Positions 1-33,723 of a stretch of 64,000 nucleotides of DNA are shown here, one piece after another. The notes under the pieces are model-generated. The model did no database searches, was not told the origin of the DNA, and saw only the letters and a program-made list of their open reading frames with translations. The stretch lies in assembly GCA_016193285.1 (NCBI GenBank), contig JACPSL010000002.1:1-64000 (forward strand). Direction: 5' to 3'. The number at the start of each line of letters is the position of its first letter. The stretch's first letter is position 1. The DNA comes from Candidatus Melainabacteria bacterium. Its GTDB lineage: Bacteria; Cyanobacteriota; Vampirovibrionia; 2-02-FULL-35-15. The position numbers and the translations under genes are program-made.

Positions 1-118
1 ACAAGAACATATGGCTAATCGTTATGTCAGATGTTATAAATCTATTTACACTAAACTTGAAATGAGAGTTGCTCACCTTGCTCATACATTCTCAAAGTGG
101 ATTAAGCTGCTTTTGAAC

Positions 119-361
119 TTAATTTTTCACAAGTCGTTCTAATACATGTCCAGCTTCAGCCAGTTTATTTTTAGCAGATTGCAAACTATTTGAAGCCTCA
201 TTAAGCAAATCATTATGTTTCCCAATGATTTCTTCTATTACTATTCTTGGAATTATAAGTTTAGAATTAGTTTCTCTCAAATATTTAAACAAAATATCCA
301 AATCTACCTTCTTCAACAAGAAGTCTTTACGCAGAATATTTGTATCTATTGCAACATGCAT
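119..361 (-). CDS. PIN-like domain protein fragment (80 aa; begins MHVAIDTNIL)
   Basis: The N-terminal MHVAIDTN motif with the acidic Asp is typical of the first strand of PIN/VapC nucleases. At 80 aa it is too short for a full PIN domain. An AGGAG ribosome-binding site (RBS) lies upstream. Confidence 0.3.
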   Translation of the reverse strand: MHVAIDTNILRKDFLLKKVDLDILFKYLRETNSKLIIPRIVIEEIIGKHNDLLNEASNSLQSAKNKLAEAGHVLERLVKN

Positions 362-468
362 ACATTTAAAACTCCTAATGTTTTTTACTCTAGCTATTAA
401 TTATAGCTTTTTTATTTATCTTAGTATAAATAGATGAACAACAATAATAATAGAAGAACTTTTTAATG

Positions 469-524
469 CTTAGTGTATACAACACACAACCACGATCAAA
501 ACAAATCTTAGTGTACACTAGAAC
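469..524. promoter_or_regulatory. Two related palindromic sites (TTAGTGTATACA … TTAGTGTACACTA) about 30 bp apart
   Basis: Seen directly. TGTATACA is an 8-bp palindrome and TAGTGTACACTA a 12-bp perfect palindrome. They lie in the intergenic region upstream of the RHH and replication genes of the island, so they are candidate operator or iteron sites. Confidence 0.3.
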
Positions 525-849
525 CCGCTTACAGACTGGGTTTGAGAAAAATGTACATAACAAAAACTTAATAAATAAGTTTAACTTATTTACATGGCTT
601 GAGCCTATGAGTTACGATTATGTGTTGAGGAACGTCCTCAGCAAAACGAAATAAAGGCTACCGACCATAACCGGAGACAGGGGAAGTAAATCCTCTTTAA
701 CAACATCAATAATCGAATTAACATAAATAGCAAAGTATCACTCGAATAATCTAAGTAATTTGGTTTTTATATATTTTGTGCTTTTATAAGAGCCTTGTAA
801 CTTATATCTGTTAGTTTATTGCCTTATACAAAGGAGGAATCACCTTAAC

Positions 850-1035
850 ATGGATAAATTAATCCCTGAACCAAATAGCAGGAATGACCTTAAAACCCTA
901 TCAATAGCATCTGTTTGGAATGAACTTAAATACCTTGCTGATAAGGAGTCAAGTTCGATTTCAAGTTACATTCGCAGGCTTGTAAAGAAAGAATATGCAA
1001 AAGAAAGGAAAAAAGAATTAGCTCCAGTCGGATAA
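850..1035 (+). CDS. small RHH/CopG-like DNA-binding protein (61 aa)
   Basis: Strong RBS AAGGAGGAA 8 nt upstream. The short basic protein has an …SSYIRRLVKKEY… pattern reminiscent of ribbon-helix-helix regulators. It sits directly upstream of the replication gene. Confidence 0.4.
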   Translation: MDKLIPEPNSRNDLKTLSIASVWNELKYLADKESSSISSYIRRLVKKEYAKERKKELAPVG

Positions 1036-1139
1036 AAACAAAAACTCCACTGGTTAGAGTGGAGTTTAGAAATCAGGTACAAATTATTTTTTCATTTCTT
1101 ATTGTACTTGATTTCATAGACTCCTTCAAGAGGTGAACT

Positions 1140-3014
1140 ATGCAATCTGAAAACTTTACAAACAAACAATTAAAAATTATTAACAAAGTAAATGCATTTG
1201 CAAAGGCAAATTTATATGCTTTGCCTGGTGAACCCGATAAAAAATTCCCACTTAACGACTTAGTTAAAATAAACTTTCCAACAAAGGAAAACCAACGAGT
1301 ATCTTATGATGTGAGAGATTATCCAGATAGGATGCTGTTACCTGAGTTTTTCAAGAAGTATCCAAATTCCAACATAATTAAACTTAATAGCAATGGTTTT
1401 CTTAGCGTAGTAATTGATATTGATAAAAAAGATGGGAAGTTTTCTAATGAAGCTCTTGCAATTACAGAATTACTAAAAGATTACCCGACTTATGTAGTAG
1501 AAACTCCTAGTGGTGGTCTTCATTACCATTACATAATTGATCCAGCTAGACCTTTAGTTGGAAGGATTATTGGTTATAAAGAAGGTGTTGATATTATTCT
1601 TGATGGTGGTACTCCTCTGCCTCCTTCAACAGCTTGGTCAGATAAGCTAGGTGCTGTAGGTGAATATACAGAAAGAGATCCTATAGAAATAAATCCGCCA
1701 ACTTTATTTCCATATGAAGTATTTCCAGATTTAATTGATACTCCTGAAAATAGGGAAAAACATGGTCAAGAAAAAAAAGTTAGAATACAAGAGCAACTTG
1801 ATAAAGGAGAAATTGCGGAGTATAGAAATGACACCTTCCACCACCTTTCAGTTGCTCTTAATTCAAAGTTTCCTAAAAATCCTAGCCTTGTGTGGGATAT
1901 TGTCAAATGGCTATATGATAACCGCACTAAAAAAGAAGGTTTCTCGCTGAATGAGCTTGAAACTACTTTTAAAAGTGCACTTAATGGAAAGGTTGTTGCT
2001 GAAGCAAGAGAATATGTGCAAGAGGAAATTAACAAAGATGTTGAGAAGTTTGGTGATCCACCTGTAGTATTTTGGAATCAGTTAAAAGATTACGATATTC
2101 CTGAGACATCTTTCCTTGTAACCAATTTAATTGTTGAAAAAGGAATTAATTATATTTATGGTAAGCCTGGTGTGTGCAAAACATGGCTAGCTCAGTACCT
2201 TGCACTTTGTATTGCAAGGGGTATTCCTGCATTTGGCAAATTTTTAACTAAACAATGCAAGATATTGTTTGTTGATAAAGACAATGACCCATACCAAATG
2301 AAACTAAGAGTTGGATCTCTTGGAGGACTTGAGACAGATCAAGTAGCTTTTTACTTAGATTCAGGTCTTTTTAGGGTTGAAAATGAGGAATCTGTAAAAA
2401 GATTAATTGCTTGCATTAAAGAGCATAAGTTTGGGTTAGTTGTTTTTGATACAGCTAGAGATATTCACAAAGGCGAAGAAGATTCTTCTACTGAAATAAA
2501 TAAACTCAACCAAGTATTTAAAAGGATAATACAAGCAGGGTGTGCAGTTCTTGTAATAAGCCACACAAAAAAAGGCGAAGGCGGTGACCTTATTGATCTG
2601 CTTAGAGGTTCAAGTGCATTAGGAGGAGCTGCTGCAAGTATGATCCATGTCAGTCAACCAAATGAAAGTACGGTGATATTACAAATGGGTAAGTGCAGAT
2701 ATGTTAAAAAGATACCACCTATTGAGCTGAATATACTTCAAAACAATAATGGGATAACTGGGTTTGAATATAAAGGTGTTGCAAAGATTGAGCCTATTAA
2801 AAAGTCTAAAGATGAACTTGCAGAACACATCTTAAAGTTAGTAAAAGGTTTTCCTGCTCCTGGATTAACTAGAAAAGATTTAATTCAGGCTTTGCAAAAG
2901 AATGGGAAGCCCAGCGAATCTACCATTGACCGTAGAGTTAATGATTTAGAGGTTGAAGGTTTGATTAAAAAGGATGACGAGGGTAATGTAATGTTTAGGC
3001 AAAATACGAGTTAA
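1140..3014 (+). CDS. replication protein: N-terminal bifunctional primase-polymerase domain fused to an AAA_25/RepA-like (RecA-fold) helicase ATPase, with a C-terminal winged-helix DNA-binding domain
   Basis: The prim-pol signature is IDIDKKDG … TPSGGLHYHY (DxD plus sGxH). Walker A is GKPGVCKT, followed by a FVDKDN Walker B-like strand. The C-terminal wHTH is LTRKDLIQALQKNG…. The RBS is AAGAGGTGA. This architecture is typical of integrative elements, satellites and plasmids. Confidence 0.75.
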   Translation: MQSENFTNKQLKIINKVNAFAKANLYALPGEPDKKFPLNDLVKINFPTKENQRVSYDVRDYPDRMLLPEFFKKYPNSNIIKLNSNGFLSVVIDIDKKDGKFSNEALAITELLKDYPTYVVETPSGGLHYHYIIDPARPLVGRIIGYKEGVDIILDGGTPLPPSTAWSDKLGAVGEYTERDPIEINPPTLFPYEVFPDLIDTPENREKHGQEKKVRIQEQLDKGEIAEYRNDTFHHLSVALNSKFPKNPSLVWDIVKWLYDNRTKKEGFSLNELETTFKSALNGKVVAEAREYVQEEINKDVEKFGDPPVVFWNQLKDYDIPETSFLVTNLIVEKGINYIYGKPGVCKTWLAQYLALCIARGIPAFGKFLTKQCKILFVDKDNDPYQMKLRVGSLGGLETDQVAFYLDSGLFRVENEESVKRLIACIKEHKFGLVVFDTARDIHKGEEDSSTEINKLNQVFKRIIQAGCAVLVISHTKKGEGGDLIDLLRGSSALGGAAASMIHVSQPNESTVILQMGKCRYVKKIPPIELNILQNNNGITGFEYKGVAKIEPIKKSKDELAEHILKLVKGFPAPGLTRKDLIQALQKNGKPSESTIDRRVNDLEVEGLIKKDDEGNVMFRQNTS

Positions 3015-3020
3015 GAATTA

Positions 3021-3059
3021 GTCGTCATCACTTTTTCCACAGGAAATGATGATGACGAC
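3021..3059 (+). other. 10-bp-stem hairpin (GTCGTCATCA … TGATGACGAC, 19-nt loop) immediately after the replication-gene stop
   Basis: Inverted repeat seen directly. It has no U-tract, so it could be a terminator or a replication-related hairpin. Confidence 0.3.
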
Positions 3060-3196
3060 GATAAGAATTTAACCAAGGAAAGACAGAAGGAGGCTAGTAA
3101 ATAACTAGTTTAGGGGGGATATTTTTATGTTTGAAGTCATTACATCAGATTTTGGATCTTTCAATTGGATTGCAGATCAATATCTGACTTCTGCAG

Positions 3197-3625
3197 GTGC
3201 CGATCATTTCAAACAACAGGAACTTGATTCAGGAGATATTACAGATGAGCGACAAGCTTGGACTGAAGAACACTAAAGAGCAGGTATTTTTAGAAATGAA
3301 GGAAAAATACCATTATTATTCTGAACTTATAAGGAAGTATAGATTAGACACACCTAGTGTACACAAGGAATATTGCAATAGTGATGATCATAGAAGATGT
3401 GGTGCAATTTGGGGGCATTCAAGCATACTATTGGATTTCATTTCTAAACTATGGTGGTGGTTTACCTCTGAAAAACCCTATGCCTATACCGCTAAAGTAA
3501 AACCTAAACTACAAAGTATTACTCAACAAATCCTTTGGCAAAGAAAAGAAGATGAACTTAATGATGAAGAATACTCTTGGCTTATAAAAATAAAGAAGGA
3601 CTGTGAAGCATTGCGAGAGAAATAA
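3197..3625 (+). CDS. hypothetical protein (142 aa)
   Basis: ORF only. No recognisable motifs, and an internal ATG near 3245 is possible. Confidence 0.35.
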   Translation: MPIISNNRNLIQEILQMSDKLGLKNTKEQVFLEMKEKYHYYSELIRKYRLDTPSVHKEYCNSDDHRRCGAIWGHSSILLDFISKLWWWFTSEKPYAYTAKVKPKLQSITQQILWQRKEDELNDEEYSWLIKIKKDCEALREK

Positions 3626-3811
3626 TACTTACTTTGCTTTTTATTAAGTTCAACTTTGTAGACTAAGTTACATTCTATAAGTGTAAATAAAAAGAAAATA
3701 CATTTCAAAAAATCAAAAAGTTTAACTCTTGCTCTACTTCAACTTTTTAACTATACTCTGGTGGGTGGAGCGGGGAGTGAGGGAAAGTTTAGATTAGGTT
3801 TGGTTTTATGT

Positions 3812-4285
3812 TCACTTGCTGTGCATATATATTGTCTGAAAACTGTCTATAAGCTCCTGTAGCTCAATTGATTTCTTTTGAACTTTTACCCACTTCCATT
3901 TCTTTTTTTTTGCAAAATTTTCTACAGCCATTCTTGCTCCAATAAATGCTGATTCAATCTCTGCTTCACTTGTTTTTTCACTATCATGGAAAATTGTTAC
4001 TGTGATAGTGTTTGGTGGATTTGGTAAATAATATATTGAGATTAAACGAGCTTTATGACTGTCAGCAAATGAGCAACTTTTCTCACTAGGTAAACAGCCT
4101 TTGTACAATTCGTTGGTTGAATTTAGGTAAGTTGCAAGCCACTCAAGCTTAGTTGGAGTATATTTATCTGAACCACTTTCGGCGTATGTAGTATAAGAGA
4201 ATGCTGTATATAAAATTAATGCTAATACTAGGGGTATGCTGATTTTTACAGTTTTCATATTTCTTAACTCCTTACAATCCAGCAA
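3812..4285 (-). CDS. hypothetical secreted protein (signal peptide MKTVKISIPLVLALILYTAFSYTTYA; true start probably near 4258)
   Basis: N-terminal hydrophobic signal-like segment, with Cys residues downstream. Confidence 0.45.
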   Translation of the reverse strand: MLDCKELRNMKTVKISIPLVLALILYTAFSYTTYAESGSDKYTPTKLEWLATYLNSTNELYKGCLPSEKSCSFADSHKARLISIYYLPNPPNTITVTIFHDSEKTSEAEIESAFIGARMAVENFAKKKKWKWVKVQKKSIELQELIDSFQTIYMHSK

Positions 4286-4381
4286 AGAACAGTCTTGTTA
4301 TCTCATATACTACATTGTTGTTATATAGTATATAACAGCACCATTCTTAGCCAATTAACCTGTATTTAAGAGGTTAAACAG

Positions 4382-4606
4382 TTGGCCAAGTGGTATAAAA
4401 AACTCAAAAAAGCAAGGGAATCAATGGGTTTGTCACTTCAAGGAGCAGTAAATCTACTCTATGAATCACACAAAATTAAAATGCATAGAGTAAATCTTTA
4501 TAAGTTGGAAGAAGGAGAGACTGAAATACCAGTGTCAAAATTTAGAGCTTTGTGTGAAATTTATGATATTAGTGCTGATTGGGTTTTAGATTTAAAAAGT
4601 TATTAA
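4382..4606 (+). CDS. XRE-family helix-turn-helix transcriptional regulator
   Basis: HTH pattern LSLQGAVNLLYESHKIKMHRVNLYKLEEGET… It ends …WVLDLKSY. The ORF track uses a TTG start with a GAGG RBS. An internal ATG giving a 60-aa product is also possible. Confidence 0.55.
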   Translation: MAKWYKKLKKARESMGLSLQGAVNLLYESHKIKMHRVNLYKLEEGETEIPVSKFRALCEIYDISADWVLDLKSY

Positions 4607-4632
4607 TTGTATATTATCCATTATTAATCTGG

Positions 4633-5115
4633 CTACTTTAGGTAGATGTTTTCAATTTGATCTGCTAAGTTCCTTAAATCAGATGCTATATAAGCCCACT
4701 CAAGATTATTAGAAGAGCTAGATTCACTTACATCTTCAGTACTACAGTTAAAGAAGTATTCTATATCTTTTAGATATTTTTCAATTTCATAACAGAAACC
4801 AAAGTTAGTTTGTATATTAAAATCACCATGGACAATCATACGTCTTAGTTTATTTAGTTTATGAAGGCATGCAAATAACTCCTTCTTTATTTCTTTATCA
4901 AGATTTATCTTATACTTGTTTTTAAAGGAATTTATTTTCTCCTCGAGACCTTCACCTCTTTCATAATTGGGTAGCTTGTCAAGCATTTCATCAAGAAACC
5001 CTTCAAATATTACAACTCTTGATAACAAGAAATACTTTGAGTATCCTTCAACTTTTGCGGACTCAGCAATATTCTGAATTTGTTGGCTATAATTATCAAT
5101 TTCTTGTTTATACAT
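4633..5115 (-). CDS. hypothetical protein, possible HEPN-like (Rx4H motif in LRRMIVHGD)
   Basis: A 160-aa mostly alpha-helical-looking protein with an R-x4-H-G motif near residue 100. It lies 22 bp downstream of the DUF262 gene on the same strand. The HEPN assignment is an inference from the motif alone. Confidence 0.45.
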   Translation of the reverse strand: MYKQEIDNYSQQIQNIAESAKVEGYSKYFLLSRVVIFEGFLDEMLDKLPNYERGEGLEEKINSFKNKYKINLDKEIKKELFACLHKLNKLRRMIVHGDFNIQTNFGFCYEIEKYLKDIEYFFNCSTEDVSESSSSNNLEWAYIASDLRNLADQIENIYLK

Positions 5116-5137
5116 TAGAGGAAAGATACTTTCAAAA

Positions 5138-6361
5138 TTAACCAGTGCGTGCTGAGTCTAAATAACTAGAAAACCCTTCTAGCCTTACTTGTAAAAGATC
5201 TTTGGTGTTTTTCCCACCACCAACATAAGCAGACTTTTGAAAAAATCTAGATTTTGTAAAACCATTAATTATTTCAGTTGTTATACCAGATATTAAATTA
5301 GGCCTGTCTATTCGAGAGACTATTACCAAAACAACAGTTTCATATAAATTTAGATTGACTGTACGATTAACTTTAAATGAATCTTTATTACAAGTCTCTG
5401 CGAGAAACTTAAAAGTATCTATGAAACACTTTTTTTCCATTTCATAATTAAACTTTATAATTTTAGCGCTGCACTGTTCTAAATAAGTTGTCAAAAAAGG
5501 AGCTATATCTTTTTGATATAAGTCCCGATTATTTTTAAATGCAAAAAATCGTAAAACAAGTTCCTCTAAAAACATGCCTTTATTTTTTTTAACTGTAGAA
5601 GGATTTTTTATTAACTTAATAGTATTTAAAAACTGCTTGTTTTTTGATAAATCATTACTAATAAAGTCAATAAACTTACTATCAATTAAACGTATAGAAG
5701 CATTTCTTAGCTGCTGATTAGATAGTTTAGTCCCACCCGCATTAATCCTTGTAAACATGTGATATCTCATCCAAACATCATCTTTTGAATATGAAAACAC
5801 ATATACATCTAAAGGTTTATTTTCTATTCGACGTTGAATCTTTCCATCAATAGAATGGTAGGTCTTCCCATTTAGTCCTTCTACAATATCACAACCTTTT
5901 AATTCAAGGTACTCAACATTATTATTAGTGTCTACCGTGTTTTCTGTTTCAGTAGGCTCCTCGTTTGATTCATCGTCTTCATTAAGTTCAAAATCTTCTT
6001 CAGGACTTTCTTCATTTAATTTATCTCTGTCAATATCAGTCAAATATTTAGTTTTTCCTATAAAGTGTAAGTAAGTACTAATTCTTTGTAAGCCGTCTAA
6101 TAGCTCCCATGCTCCATCTGCATTCTCCGCAAAATAAACAGGTGGAACTGGTAAATTAAGAGCAAGAGATTCAATAAATCTAGATTGTTGAGTAATAGTC
6201 CATTCAAAGGTTCTTTGATACGAAGGTGCAATTGTCAGTTGCTTACTTTCAATCTTTGAAGTTATCCATGATAAATCATAAGTAAATTTTTCAACAGTTA
6301 CTTTAGTTCTTTTGGCTGCTATTTCATTGGCAATATTCATACTCACAACATTTTCTGGCAT
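5138..6361 (-). CDS. DUF262 (ParB-like / GmrS-N-terminal-like) domain protein
   Basis: The N-terminal region carries the DGQQR-type motif (…WELLDGLQRISTYLHF…) after a QRTFEWT strand. It has an acidic linker (EDFELNEDDESNEEPTETEN) and a roughly 200-aa C-terminal domain of unknown type. I see no DUF1524/HNH motif. Its start overlaps the methyltransferase stop by 19 bp. Confidence 0.75.
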   Translation of the reverse strand: MPENVVSMNIANEIAAKRTKVTVEKFTYDLSWITSKIESKQLTIAPSYQRTFEWTITQQSRFIESLALNLPVPPVYFAENADGAWELLDGLQRISTYLHFIGKTKYLTDIDRDKLNEESPEEDFELNEDDESNEEPTETENTVDTNNNVEYLELKGCDIVEGLNGKTYHSIDGKIQRRIENKPLDVYVFSYSKDDVWMRYHMFTRINAGGTKLSNQQLRNASIRLIDSKFIDFISNDLSKNKQFLNTIKLIKNPSTVKKNKGMFLEELVLRFFAFKNNRDLYQKDIAPFLTTYLEQCSAKIIKFNYEMEKKCFIDTFKFLAETCNKDSFKVNRTVNLNLYETVVLVIVSRIDRPNLISGITTEIINGFTKSRFFQKSAYVGGGKNTKDLLQVRLEGFSSYLDSARTG

Positions 6362-7515
6362 TTAAATACTACCTCATTTATATTTGCATTACCTTTTATA
6401 TAATTAAAACCAGCAGCCATAAATCTTGATTCATCAAGAATAGTAAAACCTCTATTTTCTAAGCTCTCTGAAAAAATTTTTGATAAATTTACATCAATAT
6501 CTTTAAACATTGAATCCTGTAGAACGATATGAAGTGCCCCCTTCGATTTAAGTACCCTATCGATTTCGTCAAAACTTTTTTCCATATTATAGAAATAATC
6601 ATGGAATGTTTTGTAGTAATAGGAAGCCGAGGCTTTTGAGTTGTGAGATTTAATTCTATGGAGTAAGTTTTTTATCCTACTTGAGAACTTAAAAGAATTA
6701 TAAAGAATTCTTACTGTTGGAGTACCAATAAGGTTTCTTCTTAGCACATTAAATTTATTATTATCGTAACCCAACCAAACTAGTTCAGGGAGAGTCATAA
6801 CAGCATAGTCAATCCTAGTACAATATGGTGGTGAAGTGATAATGCAATCTATGCTACCTGACCTTATTGGAAGAGCCAACGATGATCCTGTCCTTAATAA
6901 AGGCAAAACAGATCTAGATACTCTCTTAGAACAATTTTGTTCGTAGAAGTGATTTATAGAAGATCTACACTCCTCAATCCATTCTTCGAAATTAAATTTA
7001 CTTAAATCATCGTCATTCTTGGGTCTTTTAATCCAAGTTGGGTTTGAACTAAAGTAATCAATGAGCTGCTTTCTAAATGCTTTAATAGCAATATATGACA
7101 GGAAATTTCGAATAATAGGTTTTCTAAGAGCTAGAATTTTATTTCTTATAACACTCAATTTTTGAGTGCTCTCTTTTGTGAACCAAAGAAAATCAAATGG
7201 TGATACGCTCTTAATTCCAATATCTTTCCAAGTGCTTACATATTTTAAAGATTCTTCTAAAACTGAATAATCTGCTAATCGAGCATAGGAATATATCAAT
7301 GTTGCTTCATTAATATCTATTCCAATAGATTTATAACCTAGATCATAAGCTACAGAGGTTGTCATTCCAGATCCGTTCCAAGGATCGAGTATTAGAGCAG
7401 TCTTTTCATTGATGTTGGATGATTTAATTGCATGCTCTACAAAAGTGTGGCTGAATCCAGCATAATAATTTATACTTGATTCTTGCTTTTTAATCTTTGT
7501 TGATGGAGTTACCAT
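6343..7515 (-). CDS. DNA methyltransferase (amino-MTase, N6-adenine or N4-cytosine)
   Basis: Motif I-like LDPWNGSGMTT preceded by an HPxxFP-like FSHTFVEH. Motif IV SPPY lies about 170 aa downstream (ITSPPYCTRIDY). The motif order is I…IV. The gene overlaps the DUF262 gene, indicating an operon. Confidence 0.8.
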   Translation of the reverse strand: MVTPSTKIKKQESSINYYAGFSHTFVEHAIKSSNINEKTALILDPWNGSGMTTSVAYDLGYKSIGIDINEATLIYSYARLADYSVLEESLKYVSTWKDIGIKSVSPFDFLWFTKESTQKLSVIRNKILALRKPIIRNFLSYIAIKAFRKQLIDYFSSNPTWIKRPKNDDDLSKFNFEEWIEECRSSINHFYEQNCSKRVSRSVLPLLRTGSSLALPIRSGSIDCIITSPPYCTRIDYAVMTLPELVWLGYDNNKFNVLRRNLIGTPTVRILYNSFKFSSRIKNLLHRIKSHNSKASASYYYKTFHDYFYNMEKSFDEIDRVLKSKGALHIVLQDSMFKDIDVNLSKIFSESLENRGFTILDESRFMAAGFNYIKGNANINEVVFKCQKML

Positions 7516-7610
7516 GTTAAGAGTATTTTATCAGTAATAGACGTTGGTTTAATATTCTAGTTACACTAGATTTAATCTTTAAATAAGACACTTATCTTAT
7601 CTCTCCATAA

Positions 7611-8729
7611 TTACCACCCCTGCATCTCTTTAATAACTTCATCCTGTGTAGTCATAAGATAGCCTTGTGTTGTTTTCAAATCAGCATGTCCTAAAGCAAG
7701 TGAAATAATATTAATTGGCTTACCAGAATTAGCAGCTATTGTTGCAAATGTTCTTCTAAGTCCATGAACATTTACTTCGATGCCTATTCTTTTTGAAAGC
7801 CTTTTTACTTTTCTAAGTAGGGTGGCTGTGTTAAATGGTACAAGCTCACCCCTAGTTGACCTTATAGTAGTTACAAAGAAATTTTCTAGATTTGTTTTTG
7901 GCCTTAATTTTAAATAATTGGCAAGATAATCATAAAGCCTGTTACTGATACCTACAAATCTATTTTTCTTACCTTTGCCTAGATAGACAAAGAGCTTTCT
8001 ATTTACTAAATCAACATCTTGAACTTTGAGATTGCAAAGCTCACTTGCCCTTAAACCAGCTAAACCTATCGTTGCAATTGTTGTACTGTTCAGGATTACA
8101 TCATAAGGTGTTTGTCCACTATGCCATCTTGATGCTTCTATTAAAAGCCTTTCAAATTCATCTTGACTGCAATGAACTTTTTTAGCAGGGTAAAACCTTT
8201 TGGGTTTTAGTTCTTTTAATTCTTCTAAGAATTTTTTATCCACCAAGCCATTTATAATTAGATATTTAATAAAAGACCTTATTGCTTTGTATAGATTATC
8301 TTTTATGCTAAAGCTCTTAGGGTCTATGCTTCCAAGAACTTGCCTTAAGTTTGCTACAGAAATTAAAGAATTTCTATTTCCTCTTTTAATAACTAAATTA
8401 TTCCAATATATACCGAAGCAATAAATATAAAGTCTTATGGTATGTTCACTAAGTGGTTTCCCAATGAGTTTTCCTGTTTTTAGCCAGTCTAACCATTCAC
8501 TTATTTGCTCTTTTACAAAAGTCTTGTTTGATAGAGAGTTTTCTTCCTTCTTTTTTAGTTGTCTAGTCTTTTTCCATTCCAAATAACTATTTAAAGGTAT
8601 AAGGTATGTAAAACCACCTGGAAAAGGTTTTGTGATTGTAGGTAGGTCTTTAGCCTTTGCTAATCTTAAAATGGAGCGTCTAGATAGCCTTAAATCCCCT
8701 GCTACCTCATTAAGTGTCAAAGTATCCAA
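7611..8729 (-). CDS. tyrosine site-specific integrase (phage integrase family)
   Basis: C-terminal catalytic signature …VHGLRRTFATIAANSG…LGHADLKTTQGYL (R, HxxR, Y). An N-terminal HTH is present (LRLSRRSILRLAKAKDLP). The gene is adjacent to a tRNA 3' end and reads away from it. Confidence 0.85.
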   Translation of the reverse strand: MDTLTLNEVAGDLRLSRRSILRLAKAKDLPTITKPFPGGFTYLIPLNSYLEWKKTRQLKKKEENSLSNKTFVKEQISEWLDWLKTGKLIGKPLSEHTIRLYIYCFGIYWNNLVIKRGNRNSLISVANLRQVLGSIDPKSFSIKDNLYKAIRSFIKYLIINGLVDKKFLEELKELKPKRFYPAKKVHCSQDEFERLLIEASRWHSGQTPYDVILNSTTIATIGLAGLRASELCNLKVQDVDLVNRKLFVYLGKGKKNRFVGISNRLYDYLANYLKLRPKTNLENFFVTTIRSTRGELVPFNTATLLRKVKRLSKRIGIEVNVHGLRRTFATIAANSGKPINIISLALGHADLKTTQGYLMTTQDEVIKEMQGW

Positions 8730-8794
8730 CTTATCCTGCTTTCCAGCAGGACACAGTAAGACACCACAAACTACTATCTATATTGTTCTAACCC

Positions 8795-8868
8795 TCGGGG
8801 CGACACGATTTGAACGTGCGACCCTCTGCTCCCAAAGCAGATGCTCTACCAAGCTGAGCCACGCCCCG
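8795..8868 (-). tRNA. tRNA-Pro (anticodon UGG)
   Basis: Cloverleaf folded by hand. The acceptor is CGGGGCG/CGCCCCG with C1-G72, the D-stem GCTC/GAGC and the anticodon stem TCTGC/GCAGA. The anticodon loop is TTTGGGA (anticodon TGG). The T-arm is GCACG TTCAAAT CGTGT and the discriminator is A. CCA is not encoded. Confidence 0.85.
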
Positions 8869-9151
8869 TTCTAGAGAATCAGAGAATCAGAAATCAGCTA
8901 CAACTCTAAGTTGTTAATATATTATATACCTCAATCAAGAAGTATGTATTCATTTTATGTAATTACTCAGGTGGCTCTGCGGTGACATAGCTCCTCGAGC
9001 CACCTTTCCATAGACCGCTCGGCTCGCCCAAATAAATTGGATCAAGCCTCGCTTTATTAAATAGCACAATTTCGTGAAGGATAACCTAAGATAAATTAAC
9101 ATGCTGAGTAGTTACCATTTCATGAAGTATGCTACGAAATTAAATCATATG

Positions 9152-9190
9152 TGTAGATAAATTTAAAGTAGTGGTTTAAATTTATCTACA
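9152..9190. promoter_or_regulatory. perfect 13-bp inverted repeat TGTAGATAAATTT-N13-AAATTTATCTACA, 19 bp upstream of an ATPase gene
   Basis: Seen directly. Candidate operator or hairpin. Confidence 0.3.
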
Positions 9191-9208
9191 TAAGCCTATA
9201 ATAATAAT

Positions 9209-12425
<3,217 letters not shown>

Positions 12426-20592: not shown

Positions 20593-21837
20593 ATGAATTA
20601 TAAAAAGAGGTTGATTGAGCCAGAAATATATAAACTTCTTAAAATCTTTCCTGTTGTTTCAATTACTGGACCAAGGCAATCAGGAAAAACAACCTTAATA
20701 AAAATAATTTCTAGTAAGTCAAAAAACTGGAAATATTATAATTTAGACAACAGGGAAATTTTGTTGAAGATAAAAGAAGATCCTTCTCTCTTTACAAACT
20801 CACTGAACTCTAACACAGCAATTGACGAAGCTCAAAAAGCTCCGGAATTATTCCATTCACTAAAAGAACTTGTCGATAGCGGATTTAAGCACAAAATTAT
20901 TATTTCAGGTTCTGCAAACTTTCTGCTTATGAAATCAATTACAGAATCTTTAGCAGGAAGAGTAGGCATTCTTGAATTACTGCCATTTTCTGTTTCAGAA
21001 GCTATCTCAAGCAGCAGCAAGAAGATAATAAAGCTTATGATTTCTTCTAAAGATATAATAAATTTTAAAAATAAGCTAGCCAGACTCAAGAAAACAAAGC
21101 AATCAGACATGTTGGAATTTATACTAAGAGGTGGATTTCCAAAAGTTCACGAACTAGATAAAAACCAGTCCAGCAAGTGGTTTGAATCATATATAAGCAC
21201 TTATATTGAAAAAGATTTAAGAGACTTATCTCAGATTGTAAATCTGGACAGTTTCCAGAAAGTATATAAAACTCTTGCTTTTCAGACAAGCAACATTTTA
21301 AACATAAATAACATTAGCTCAGATTTAGGAATCGATTCAAAGACTGTTAAAAAATATATTTCTCTTCTGGAGTCTTCATATCAGTGCAAATTAATTTATC
21401 CATTCTGTATGAAAGCAAACAAACAACTAGTTAAAAGACCTAAAGTACATTATCTGGATACAGGATTAATAAATTATTTTTATGAGAACCATACAAATGA
21501 GCAGATGCTCAATGGTGGAGAATGGGGAAAAATACTTGAGACATTTCTGTTTTCAGAGCTATACAAAGAAATAAAAGACATTACTCCAAAACCATCAATA
21601 AATTTTTGGAGAACAAGCAACGGTGCAGAAGTTGATTTTGTAATTGCCTCAGGGAAAAACATATACCCTATTGAAGTAAAATCAGGTTTTAAAATAAATC
21701 ATTATGAACTAAGAGGAATACAAAGCTTCATGGAAAGTTATCAAAATGTGCCTTTCGGAATTGTAATCTACAGAGGACAGGAACCAATATTAGTTGATAA
21801 AAAGATTATTGCCCTTCCATGGAATTTGGCTTTTTAA
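20593..21837 (+). CDS. AAA+ ATPase of the AAA_14 + DUF4143 family, copy 2
   Basis: Walker A ITGPRQSGKTT, the DUF4143 C-terminus (…GAEVDFVIAS…IEVKSG…). Confidence 0.8.
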   Translation: MNYKKRLIEPEIYKLLKIFPVVSITGPRQSGKTTLIKIISSKSKNWKYYNLDNREILLKIKEDPSLFTNSLNSNTAIDEAQKAPELFHSLKELVDSGFKHKIIISGSANFLLMKSITESLAGRVGILELLPFSVSEAISSSSKKIIKLMISSKDIINFKNKLARLKKTKQSDMLEFILRGGFPKVHELDKNQSSKWFESYISTYIEKDLRDLSQIVNLDSFQKVYKTLAFQTSNILNINNISSDLGIDSKTVKKYISLLESSYQCKLIYPFCMKANKQLVKRPKVHYLDTGLINYFYENHTNEQMLNGGEWGKILETFLFSELYKEIKDITPKPSINFWRTSNGAEVDFVIASGKNIYPIEVKSGFKINHYELRGIQSFMESYQNVPFGIVIYRGQEPILVDKKIIALPWNLAF

Positions 21838-30140: not shown

Positions 30141-30214
30141 CGGGCCGTGGCTCAGCTTGGTAGAGCACTTCCTTGGGGTGGAAGGGGTCGAGAGTTCAAA
30201 TCTCTCCGGTCCGA
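30141..30214 (+). tRNA. tRNA-Pro (anticodon GGG)
   Basis: Folded by hand. Acceptor CGGGCCG/CGGTCCG, D-stem GCTC/GAGC, anticodon stem CTTCC/GGAAG, anticodon loop TTGGGGT, T-arm GAGAG TTCAAAT CTCTC and discriminator A. Confidence 0.85.
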
Positions 30215-32547: not shown

Positions 32548-33723
32548 TCATAAAACCCGACTTGTAGCTTTTATAATTTCGCCAACCAGATTTCTTAAGC
32601 TAACAAATGTAACTTCTATACTTCCATATTTCTTTTTGTACGTTCTATCAATATCATGAGAAACTACATAATTTAGACCTTTTTGATATGTTCTTCTGAA
32701 AATCTCTAAGTTGGAAGAATTAAAATTGTCTGATTTCCATTTGCATTCAATTGCTATCGGATCTTTGCCTCTTGGGGAAATAACAAAATCTATTTCATTC
32801 CCTTGTTTATTTCTCCAATACATTATTTTTTTCGTTTGTGTTTCTGCATTTATTTCATTTAAAACAAAGTGCTCCCACAATACTCCCATATCATCTGGTC
32901 TTAAAGAGTTCCAACTACGATAGTAACAAACAAAACCTGTATCAAATGCATACACTTTTGGGGCTTTTACTATTTCGTTTATTTTGTAGGTGCTAAAAGG
33001 CCTAACAATATTTGCTACAAATGTTTGATCTAAAATATTTAAGTAGTTATTAATAGTGACTCTGCTTACTTCACAAGGCTTAGCATATTTTGTTGCTTCA
33101 AAAATCCCACCACTATTTACAAACAAAAGTTCAATAAACTTTTGAAAAGAACTTTTCTTTTCAAGCTTAAATAATTCTTCTATGTCTTTAGACCAATATT
33201 CGCTTATCCATTCCTCAAACTCATACTCTGGTACCTTGTTCTGCAAAAAATTAGGTGGTAGCCCACCAAATAAAAATCTATGACTGTAGTCTTGATTATT
33301 AAAATTCTTTAGATCTTTAGTAATTAAAGGAGTGAGCCAAATTGAACATTTTCTTCCAGTAAGCGTATCTTTAAATTTCTTTGATGAACCAAGTGTTGAT
33401 GAACCAGTTGCAACAACTTTTATATCAGGGAAATAATCACTAGCTATCTTTAATAGCTCTGATGGGTTATCTAGCCTGTGAACTTCATCAAAGATAACTT
33501 TCTTCTTTTTTAATCCTTTTAGAAATAACTCGGGATTTTCGGCTTGTTTTCTGATTCCATAAAGCTCAAAGTCAAAGTATTCAATGTTTGGAATAGATTT
33601 GCATAGGTAGGTTTTTCCTACTCTTCTTACACCATTAAGCCATATTACAGATCTGCTTTTCCAAGCATTGTTTATCTTTTCTAACCAGAAATCTCTTTGG
33701 ACCATACGTAAGCATACTATCAT
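32548..33723 (-). CDS. AAA+ ATPase of the AAA_14 + DUF4143 family, copy 3
   Basis: Walker A LNGVRRVGKTY, Walker B VIFDEVH. The DUF4143 C-terminus has …GNEIDFVIS…IECKWKS…. Confidence 0.8.
   Translation of the reverse strand: MIVCLRMVQRDFWLEKINNAWKSRSVIWLNGVRRVGKTYLCKSIPNIEYFDFELYGIRKQAENPELFLKGLKKKKVIFDEVHRLDNPSELLKIASDYFPDIKVVATGSSTLGSSKKFKDTLTGRKCSIWLTPLITKDLKNFNNQDYSHRFLFGGLPPNFLQNKVPEYEFEEWISEYWSKDIEELFKLEKKSSFQKFIELLFVNSGGIFEATKYAKPCEVSRVTINNYLNILDQTFVANIVRPFSTYKINEIVKAPKVYAFDTGFVCYYRSWNSLRPDDMGVLWEHFVLNEINAETQTKKIMYWRNKQGNEIDFVISPRGKDPIAIECKWKSDNFNSSNLEIFRRTYQKGLNYVVSHDIDRTYKKKYGSIEVTFVSLRNLVGEIIKATSRVL

Follow-up and report, generated by a model that had tools for sequence, protein, structure and literature searches.

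Tycheposons, described from Prochlorococcus, combine an inward-facing integrase at a tRNA gene with a small replication module at the opposite end, cargo genes and a hypervariable flank (bioRxiv 10.1101/2020.12.28.424599). A partial tRNA provides their second attachment (att) site, and some of them carry a large serine recombinase (Hackl et al., bioRxiv 10.1101/2020.12.28.424599). Phage-inducible chromosomal islands (PICIs) span 10-20 kb (bioRxiv 10.1101/2020.12.28.424599). The locus compared here with these systems belongs to a Candidatus Melainabacteria bacterium (assembly GCA_016193285.1) and lies in the first 64,000 nucleotides (nt) of contig JACPSL010000002.1, the whole stretch of DNA that was analysed, hereafter the window. 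Its positions 1..8868 very probably hold most of a site-specific integrative, self-replicating island seated in the 3' half of a tRNA-Pro(UGG) gene. The element is predicted to belong to a family of modular elements, roughly 9-12 kb in size and each with two cargo slots.

The predicted integration target is the tRNA-Pro(UGG) gene, with its 3' end towards the integrase gene (int). Both genes lie on the minus strand, with 65 nt between the tRNA 3' end and the start of int; the first-pass annotation of this DNA, made from the letters alone, had described the integrase gene as abutting this end. At this boundary a recombinase gene stands beside an intact tRNA gene. The encoded protein matched Phage_integrase of Pfam (89 bits) and, weakly, an N-terminal HTH_17 domain, as well as phrog_1 of PHROGs and an XerA-like model of NCBIfam, the last with 126 bits, under every curated cutoff. 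The residues of the R..K..HxxR..H..Y pattern are present, and they are invariant in an alignment with a homologue of 58% amino acid (aa) identity from the metagenomic contig L009. A closer homologue, with 83% identity, was found in a related genome, RIFCSPHIGHO2_02_FULL_34_12 (contig MFRM01000003.1; integrase end L037, distal end L029).

Both ends of an island can be seen in MFRM01000003.1. The tRNA-Pro gene is followed there by an arm and an integrase gene with about 85% DNA identity (83% for the protein) to the window, and the 3' segment of the tRNA recurs 12,436 nt away in direct orientation, delimiting an island of 12.4 kb. Alignment of the two junctions gave a perfect 48-bp direct repeat, TGCTTTGGGAGCAGAGGGTCGCACGTTCAAATCGTGTCGCCCCGAGAG, which spans the tRNA gene from its anticodon loop onwards and extends 3 nt beyond its 3' end. 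A direct repeat of a tRNA segment is the classical mark of integration into a tRNA gene. The corresponding stretch in the window differs from this repeat by one mismatch, and the tRNA-Pro att core was taken as about 46-48 bp with the sequence TGCTTTGGGAGCAGAGGGTCGCACGTTCAAATCGTGTCGCCCCGAG. The distal 3.6 kb of the relative's island contains, in the order and orientation of the window, a replication gene, a homologue of the small ribbon-helix-helix (RHH) protein (34% identity), a 96-aa open reading frame (ORF) and a PIN_12 gene, and the repeat begins 344 nt after the PIN_12 stop codon. Compared with the window, the replication module of this island appears to be replaced, the integrase, RHH and PIN genes being kept.

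The tRNA-Pro site was then compared in one genome per species by scanning with the 39-nt 3' part of the tRNA gene, which gave 23 loci, nine of them in Melainabacteria-type genomes. The tRNA itself is identical at 74/74 positions to that of three other Melainabacteria metagenome-assembled genomes (MAGs). On its 5' side, ligA and the next genes occur in the same order as in the window in seven Melainabacteria relatives. On its 3' side no gene is common to the five relatives with enough flank, apart from a related integrase in one of them. The block found in the window is absent or different at the same site in these relatives, and the first-pass annotation, which would have abandoned the island had the same block lain at this tRNA in all relatives with no signs of mobility, stands in this respect. 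By this comparison the tRNA-Pro 3' flank is a hypervariable site; a comparison with an empty site is not possible because other genes follow the tRNA in every relative. Islands seem to have been gained and to have decayed repeatedly at this tRNA, since integrase or arm remnants persist in two relatives. L033 has two C-terminal integrase remnants of 25-29 aa 3' of tRNA-Pro (4145..4219 and 5549..5635), and L042 retains 48 nt of the integrase-proximal arm (6329..6376) without an integrase.

The same backbone with different cargo was found on metagenomic contigs. L009 (9,048 nt) encodes, in this order, a DUF4238 protein, an RHH protein, a replicase, a 162-aa protein, an XRE regulator, a GNAT protein, a 163-aa protein, an HD/dGTPase-like protein and an integrase. 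The RHH (37% identity), replicase (48%), XRE (40%, at the matching position) and integrase (58%, also with HTH_17) follow the order of the window. Its cargo is unlike that of the window, with the HD/dGTPase-like (PADLOC dGTPase-like, 7e-9) and GNAT genes next to int, in what would be slot B, and the DUF4238 gene at the distal end. The two termini of L009 have 17 nt in common; the right one is the 5' start of a tRNA, and the left one covers the D-arm through to an ACG anticodon loop, after which it diverges. By the logic of a k=31 assembly graph, L009 would be a complete element of about 9.0 kb bounded by a 43-nt repeat. A second contig, L010, has the RHH gene, the replicase (58%) and a small conserved gene in common with the window, and it opens with a fragment that matches E. 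coli tRNA-Arg genes at 96% identity. The predicted family backbone, listed with the distal end first, would read att, slot A, RHH, replicase, small conserved gene, divergent gene and XRE, slot B, integrase, and att with the tRNA.

The tRNA fragments of these contigs (L009 1..30 and 9019..9048; L010 1..30) correspond to the 5' half of tRNA-Arg(ACG), the block of identity reaching from about position -4 of the tRNA 5' end into the anticodon loop or stem. The window element uses the opposite half of its tRNA, despite the 58%-identical integrase. Integration that duplicates a tRNA 5' half is unusual. Rfam gave no score to the partial tRNAs of L009, L010 and L029.

Beyond the att cores, the ends of family members resemble one another. 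Homology is clear among the distal arms of the MFRM01000003.1 island, L009 and L010 (local alignment scores of 66-74 as against about 25 for shuffled sequences), and in those of L009, L010 and L029 tandem TGTCCNGCT sites lie at a distance of about 60-90 nt from the core. This 9-mer, in opposite orientation, is present in the integrase-proximal arms of the window, L037 and L009. The motif AGCNGGNCA occurs 11 times in 89 kb, eight of these occurrences lying at ends of family elements and a ninth being a single site at the left of the window (147..155). The AGCNGGNCA sites near both ends are probably arm-type binding sites of the integrase.

In the window, AGCAGGACA is part of a hairpin, TCCTGCT-GGAA-AGCAGGA (8732..8753), that ends 7 nt ahead of the TTG at which int starts. 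The hairpin is kept in L037, and the sole AGGA usable as a ribosome-binding site for int lies inside it. It may exert translational or operator control of int.

The distal att site is probably located left of position 1, outside the window, which fits the placement of this boundary in the first-pass annotation. The relative's island has a full-length PIN_12 gene of 347 aa at the matching position, 32% identical to the fragment in the window, and from this gene plus the approximately 340 nt that follow it the site would be expected about 1.0 kb left of position 1, an estimate that holds if the PIN gene of the window is a point-mutated pseudogene. Neither a tRNA-like sequence nor an att remnant was found in 1..200, where local alignment scores stayed at the level of shuffled sequence, and a scan of 1..9300 against Rfam gave the tRNA as the sole match. 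The peptide encoded at the left edge had no match in a homology search.

In public assemblies, Logan contigs from 3-4 runs of one study break at exactly 112, 7707 and 9076, and the assembly is clean over 112..7707 and from 9076 onward; the window has no repeats at these three positions. The shared breaks therefore suggest that, in the community, the integrase/tRNA segment and the sequence left of 141 each occur with alternative neighbours. They would be explained by co-occurring variant islands with the same integrase and distal end, or by rearrangement of the distal end. The last 90 nt or so of int (7608..7697), which adjoin the break at 7707, are 84% identical to the L033 remnant. The single arm-type motif TGTCCAGCT (147..155, minus strand) has the orientation of a distal end and lies 6 nt from the assembly branch point; homology to PIN_12 stops at about nt 154, where this motif sits, and no att core is found beside it. 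Positions 100..175 were considered as a conserved distal arm, which appeared plausible with MAFFT; the candidate was rejected, as its Smith-Waterman scores lacked significance and were exceeded elsewhere in the window.

Table 1. Features of the island region and of its tRNA boundary, in window coordinates, from the distal end to the tRNA gene.
Feature	Position	Strand	Basis
Left edge: decayed PIN remainder (still island) or junction	1..118		no tRNA-like sequence
Cargo slot A: N-terminal 80-aa PIN_12 fragment (truncated or pseudogene)	119..361	-	PIN_12, 38 bits
Two related palindromic sites (CTTAGTGTAYAC), 38 nt apart, PIN/RHH intergenic region	469..521		motif and repeat search
RHH-like (CopG/Arc-type) protein, 61 aa, immediately 5' of replicase	850..1035	+	weak RHH_7; PDB profile matches
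Replicase, 624 aa: Prim-Pol (AEP) fused to AAA_25 (RepA/RecA-like) helicase	1140..3014	+	Pfam
18-nt inverted repeat just past replicase stop codon	3021..3059		repeat search; 86% conserved in L010
Conserved 126-142-aa protein downstream of replicase, backbone gene (HYY52_00045)	3245..3625	+	homologues
157-aa protein, hydrophobic N-terminus, divergent from XRE	3812..4285	-	only sub-threshold DUF6520 match
Overlapping palindromes, divergent promoter region between 157-aa gene and XRE	4305..4340		repeat search
XRE-family helix-turn-helix (HTH) regulator, backbone gene	4382..4606	+	HTH_3, 27.4 bits (cutoff 23)
Cargo slot B: 160-aa protein, all-helical, last gene of methyltransferase-DUF262 operon	4633..5115	-	ORF
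Cargo slot B: ParB/DUF262 (GmrSD_N) protein, 407 aa, NsnA-like	5138..6361	-	Pfam GmrSD_N, 92 bits
Cargo slot B: N6/N4 DNA methyltransferase	6343..7515	-	Pfam N6_N4_Mtase, 55.9 bits; PADLOC MTase_II, 1e-23
Tyrosine integrase, 372 aa: Xer-like catalytic domain, N-terminal HTH_17-like domain	7611..8729	-	Pfam, PHROG, NCBIfam
Integrase-proximal arm with motif AGCAGGACA at 8745..8753	8730..8791	-	about 85% nt identity to relative's arm
Putative att core, attL side, anticodon loop to 3 nt beyond tRNA 3' end	8792..8839	-	counterpart of MFRM01000003.1 repeat
tRNA-Pro(UGG), intact	8795..8868	-	ARAGORN; Rfam tRNA, 64.1 bits

The genes of the island were classified by a domain scan of the ten main ORFs of at least 60 aa in 1..8729 against Pfam, PHROGs and NCBIfam. 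Pfam recovered the XRE regulator, the Prim-Pol and AAA_25 domains, the PIN-like fragment and the methyltransferase/DUF262 cargo that had been read from the letters alone, and the scan gave no capsid, tail, terminase or portal match, in keeping with the earlier statement that structural phage genes are lacking. Intact ORFs encode the integrase, the replicase, RHH, XRE and the three products of the cargo operon.

The replicase exceeded the Pfam cutoff for Prim-Pol (25.1 bits, cutoff 22.8), reached 81 bits with AAA_25 and matched a DNA polymerase/primase family of PHROGs (6e-26). The fusion of Prim-Pol with AAA_25 is common, with 753 representative clusters at E<=1e-30. Homologues of the window protein with 47-64% identity were found solely on short, element-like metagenomic contigs, and a profile search of genome contigs with the replicase alignment gave no match among the 600 candidates listed. 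At the position of this fusion gene, L029 encodes a zinc-finger/Toprim-like primase (3..1196, minus strand).

The small protein called RHH in the first-pass annotation is indeed encoded 5' of the replicase, and its family assignment is weaker than was stated. RHH_7 of Pfam matched at E=0.006, below the cutoff; homologues occupy the matching position in L009, L010 and L029, and a profile of four positional homologues matched mainly RHH repressors in the PDB (HP0222, 0.011; Arc, 0.035; AvtR, 0.18), consistent with the call. The paired palindromes that had been noted at 469..524 are likewise present, as CTTAGTGTATAC at 469..480 and CTTAGTGTACACTAG at 507..521, within the 487-nt intergenic region between the PIN and RHH genes, some 330 nt before the RHH gene begins, and a third palindrome of the CTTAGTGTAYAC type lies at 3355..3364. 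As a count of the motif this is not statistically unusual (8 found, 5.6 expected). The pair at 469..521 is a candidate operator or origin element, and the palindromes in front of the XRE gene form another candidate operator. The position of the 157-aa gene, divergent from XRE, is taken by a gene of other sequence in L009 and L010.

In plasmid cassettes of the pMV158 type, a CopG RHH protein is encoded upstream of a rolling-circle Rep. The window resembles them in having a small RHH gene immediately 5' of, and co-oriented with, a replication gene; it differs in its replicase, an AEP primase-polymerase with a RecA-like helicase instead of a rolling-circle Rep. This likeness to plasmid CopG-Rep copy-control modules would fit an integrated plasmid, or an integrative mobilizable element moved by the conjugation machinery of another element. 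Two further contigs, L015 and L016, would also fit, on which the same replicase family (47% identity) is found with large serine recombinases (L015 25..2950; L016 3252..4856), L015 additionally carrying an ImmA-like (M78)/XRE pair. No relaxase, oriT-associated, coupling-protein or type IV secretion system (T4SS) gene was found in the island or in L009, L010, L015 and L016. A conjugative or mobilizable element is thus without support for want of a relaxase or T4SS gene, and such an origin is very improbable; the likeness to mobilizable elements drawn in the first-pass annotation gains no support from a relaxase or oriT machinery. Since it also occurs with serine recombinases, the replicase appears to be a free-standing module, and its pairing with different recombinases points to exchange of the recombinase module between family members.

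The small gene that follows the replicase has homologues in the same position in L010 (47%) and L015 (44%). PICIs keep their interference and packaging genes after the replicase. A conserved gene after the replicase in three family members would therefore suit a true PICI-like phage satellite, silenced by the XRE regulator, induced by a helper phage, self-replicated and packaged in helper capsids. Helper hijack would in that case be carried out by the small genes at 3245..3625 and 3812..4285 or by a 49-aa ORF, a proposal as unlikely as the satellite itself. Size and layout also fit, with int at one end, regulators, a replicase, defence-type cargo and no structural genes, and comparable cyanobacterial elements are known, some of them PICI-like (bioRxiv 10.1101/2020.12.28.424599). 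However, Pfam, PHROGs and NCBIfam recognised no terS, capsid, cpm/ppi-like, cos/pac or helper-derepression gene, although divergent genes could escape these searches. The AlphaFold2 (AF2) model of the 126-aa conserved protein is helical and of low confidence (predicted local distance difference test, pLDDT, 63), and a fold search with it against BFVD gave no viral match at E<0.8. In IMG/VR (2.9 million viral contigs, searched with limited sensitivity) the replicase reached at most 27% identity, and neither an integrase relative nor the att core was found. To our knowledge no helper phage of this element has been described. An integrated island that replicates itself is therefore preferred to a packaged satellite; as neither packaging nor conjugation genes are present, the gene content names no route of transfer from cell to cell.

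The slot next to int contains an operon of three genes. Its DUF262 protein matched NsnA (5.9e-53) and PD-T4-2_A (1.2e-34) of PADLOC and phrog_2598 of PHROGs (2e-68). The 160-aa product of the last gene gave no match in Pfam, PADLOC, PHROGs, NCBIfam or PDB, and its AF2 model (pLDDT 43) is unusable; an Rx4H string (LRRMIVHG) would allow the speculation that the protein is HEPN-like. In the distal slot, the PIN_12 fragment covers positions 1-72 of the 172 in the profile and is followed by two in-frame stops; reading through them extends the match to profile position 107 for a gain of only 1.2 bits.

The Menshen system consists of NsnA (ParB-DUF262 with ParBDB), NsnB (ABC ATPase with DUF3696) and NsnC (inPIN with a nuclease) (PMC12065111), and its loci are often found beside methylases (PMC12065111). 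The cargo is alike in that the 407-aa protein matches the NsnA model and has a methyltransferase as its neighbour. It differs in its partners, which are the methyltransferase and the 160-aa protein; the NsnB ABC ATPase and the NsnC inPIN-nuclease were not found among the neighbours with Pfam and PADLOC. By their domain content the cargo genes are most likely anti-phage genes. With the Menshen partners NsnB and NsnC missing and the 160-aa partner without relatives, a defence role of the cargo as a whole is a plausible prediction.

The following course of events can be proposed. The Xer-like integrase, with its HTH domain, would recombine the tRNA segment of the element, which begins at the anticodon loop and includes the 3' end, with the tRNA gene of the chromosome, so that integration regenerates tRNA-Pro. 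The AGCNGGNCA sites near both ends would probably serve in arm binding by the integrase. XRE and RHH may hold the element silent, and RHH probably controls its own operon with the replicase, in the manner of CopG on plasmids of the pMV158 type. Once the element is excised, the Prim-Pol/AAA_25 protein would replicate the circle. The two variable slots would bring cargo of benefit to the host, the methyltransferase, the NsnA-like protein and the 160-aa protein by int and the truncated PIN_12 gene distally. The window copy itself may still be mobile, regulated and active in defence along these lines.

Several observations weigh against this interpretation. No second copy of the tRNA 3' end was found in 1..8794, either with up to three mismatches or by local alignment, which extends the earlier statement that 1..8700 holds none. 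The truncation of the PIN gene shows some decay of the window copy, which may therefore be immobile. No complete known defence system is present in the cargo, which has no NsnB, no NsnC and no DUF1524 nuclease, the last looked for in the DUF262 protein by Pfam scan. The island of MFRM01000003.1 was compared at its two ends, its middle 8 kb not being covered. The repeat that would bound L009 comes from graph logic and includes no chromosomal junction. Regulation by XRE and RHH, integrase binding at the arm motifs and protection by the cargo are predictions from the sequence. The block also shows no compositional contrast to its flank, whether in GC content (32.3% in the island against 31.4 +/- 1.6%) or in tetranucleotides (distance within one standard deviation).

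Some of these points suit a decaying, immobile island remnant whose distal end was lost or rearranged, a doubtful possibility that is also compatible with a tRNA-Pro island. A remnant would be expected to show a PIN_12 gene cut to 80 aa with two in-frame stops behind it, no att copy in the window and the composition of its host, and the reproducible assembly break at 112 and the true remnants at the same site in L033 and L042 point the same way. By contrast, the integrase, the replicase, both regulators and the cargo operon are intact, the backbone is complete relative to L009, and the distal att site is expected about 1.0 kb left of the window, thus beyond the sampled sequence. An integrative island most of which is present in the window remains the preferred interpretation.

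Two features of the neighbourhood may be added. A second proline tRNA gene, tRNA-Pro(GGG), lies 21 kb off (30141..30214, plus strand) and has no match to the att core pattern. Between tRNA-Pro(UGG) and ligA, a gene at 9209..10426 encodes a 405-aa ATPase with AAA_14 and DUF4143 domains, a PADLOC candidate (PDC-S01, 5e-101), with a perfect 16-nt inverted repeat just upstream (palindrome 9152..9190) and paralogues at about 20593..21837 and 32611..33642. As the tRNA stands directly beside ligA in 7/7 relatives, this gene appears to have been inserted separately, 5' of the tRNA.

The locus shows a path by which acquired, probably anti-phage genes may enter an uncultured sister lineage of the Cyanobacteria, known here from a groundwater MAG. 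This path is a tRNA-Pro hotspot served by small integrase-plus-replicase elements. It also offers material for tests, namely an att core, candidate arm-type sites and a compact two-slot backbone that could be mined for defence genes. More tentatively, these elements might form an undescribed lineage of self-replicating, tRNA-targeting Melainabacteria elements, tycheposon- or PICI-like two-slot "defence shuttles" with swapped modules. If so, Prim-Pol or Toprim replicases and tyrosine or serine recombinases would have been swapped between members, integrases of 58% identity would use opposite tRNA halves (the 3' half of tRNA-Pro in the window, the 5' half of tRNA-Arg(ACG) in L009 and L010), and the conserved genes without assignment could encode new helper-hijack or transfer functions.

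Among known systems, P4-like satellites reportedly carry hotspots of swapped anti-phage systems (Rousset et al. 2022). They are alike in their integration at a tRNA, their size of about 10 kb, their integrase, their primase-helicase replicase and their defence hotspot. The likeness does not extend to the sequences, since searches of the window with PHROG and Pfam gave no psu, delta, sid, cos or alpha (Toprim-D5) primase and there is no sequence relationship; a Toprim-like primase does occur in the relative's island. PICIs such as the Staphylococcus aureus pathogenicity islands (SaPIs) and EcCICFT073 have in common with the window int at one end, HTH regulators, a primase/helicase replicase, accessory cargo and no structural genes. 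The window element, of at least 8.8 kb, is near the small end of their size range. It differs from them in that no terS, capsid-morphogenesis or packaging-interference gene was recognised in the window, and in its regulators, with XRE divergent from a non-conserved 157-aa gene and RHH upstream of rep instead of a canonical stl/str pair. The first-pass annotation had described a tRNA-integrated island of satellite or PICI-like architecture; integration at the tRNA is upheld by the relatives, the 48-bp repeat and L009, and the likeness to satellites and PICIs is one of architecture only.

The likeness in layout is closer to tycheposons than to PICIs. The comparison is one of layout, not of recombinase clade, and the window and its relatives match the tycheposon plan in the integrase facing inward from a tRNA, the small replication module opposite, the cargo, the hypervariable flank, the partial tRNA as second att site and the large serine recombinase of some members. 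The differences lie in the host, here non-photosynthetic Melainabacteria from groundwater, in the cargo, defence-like here and devoted to nutrient acquisition in tycheposons, and in the tRNA-Arg 5' half carried by the sister elements L009 and L010. The logic of the element is thus the same as that of Prochlorococcus tycheposons, PICIs and P4-like satellites, and it leaves the understanding of mobile elements unchanged.

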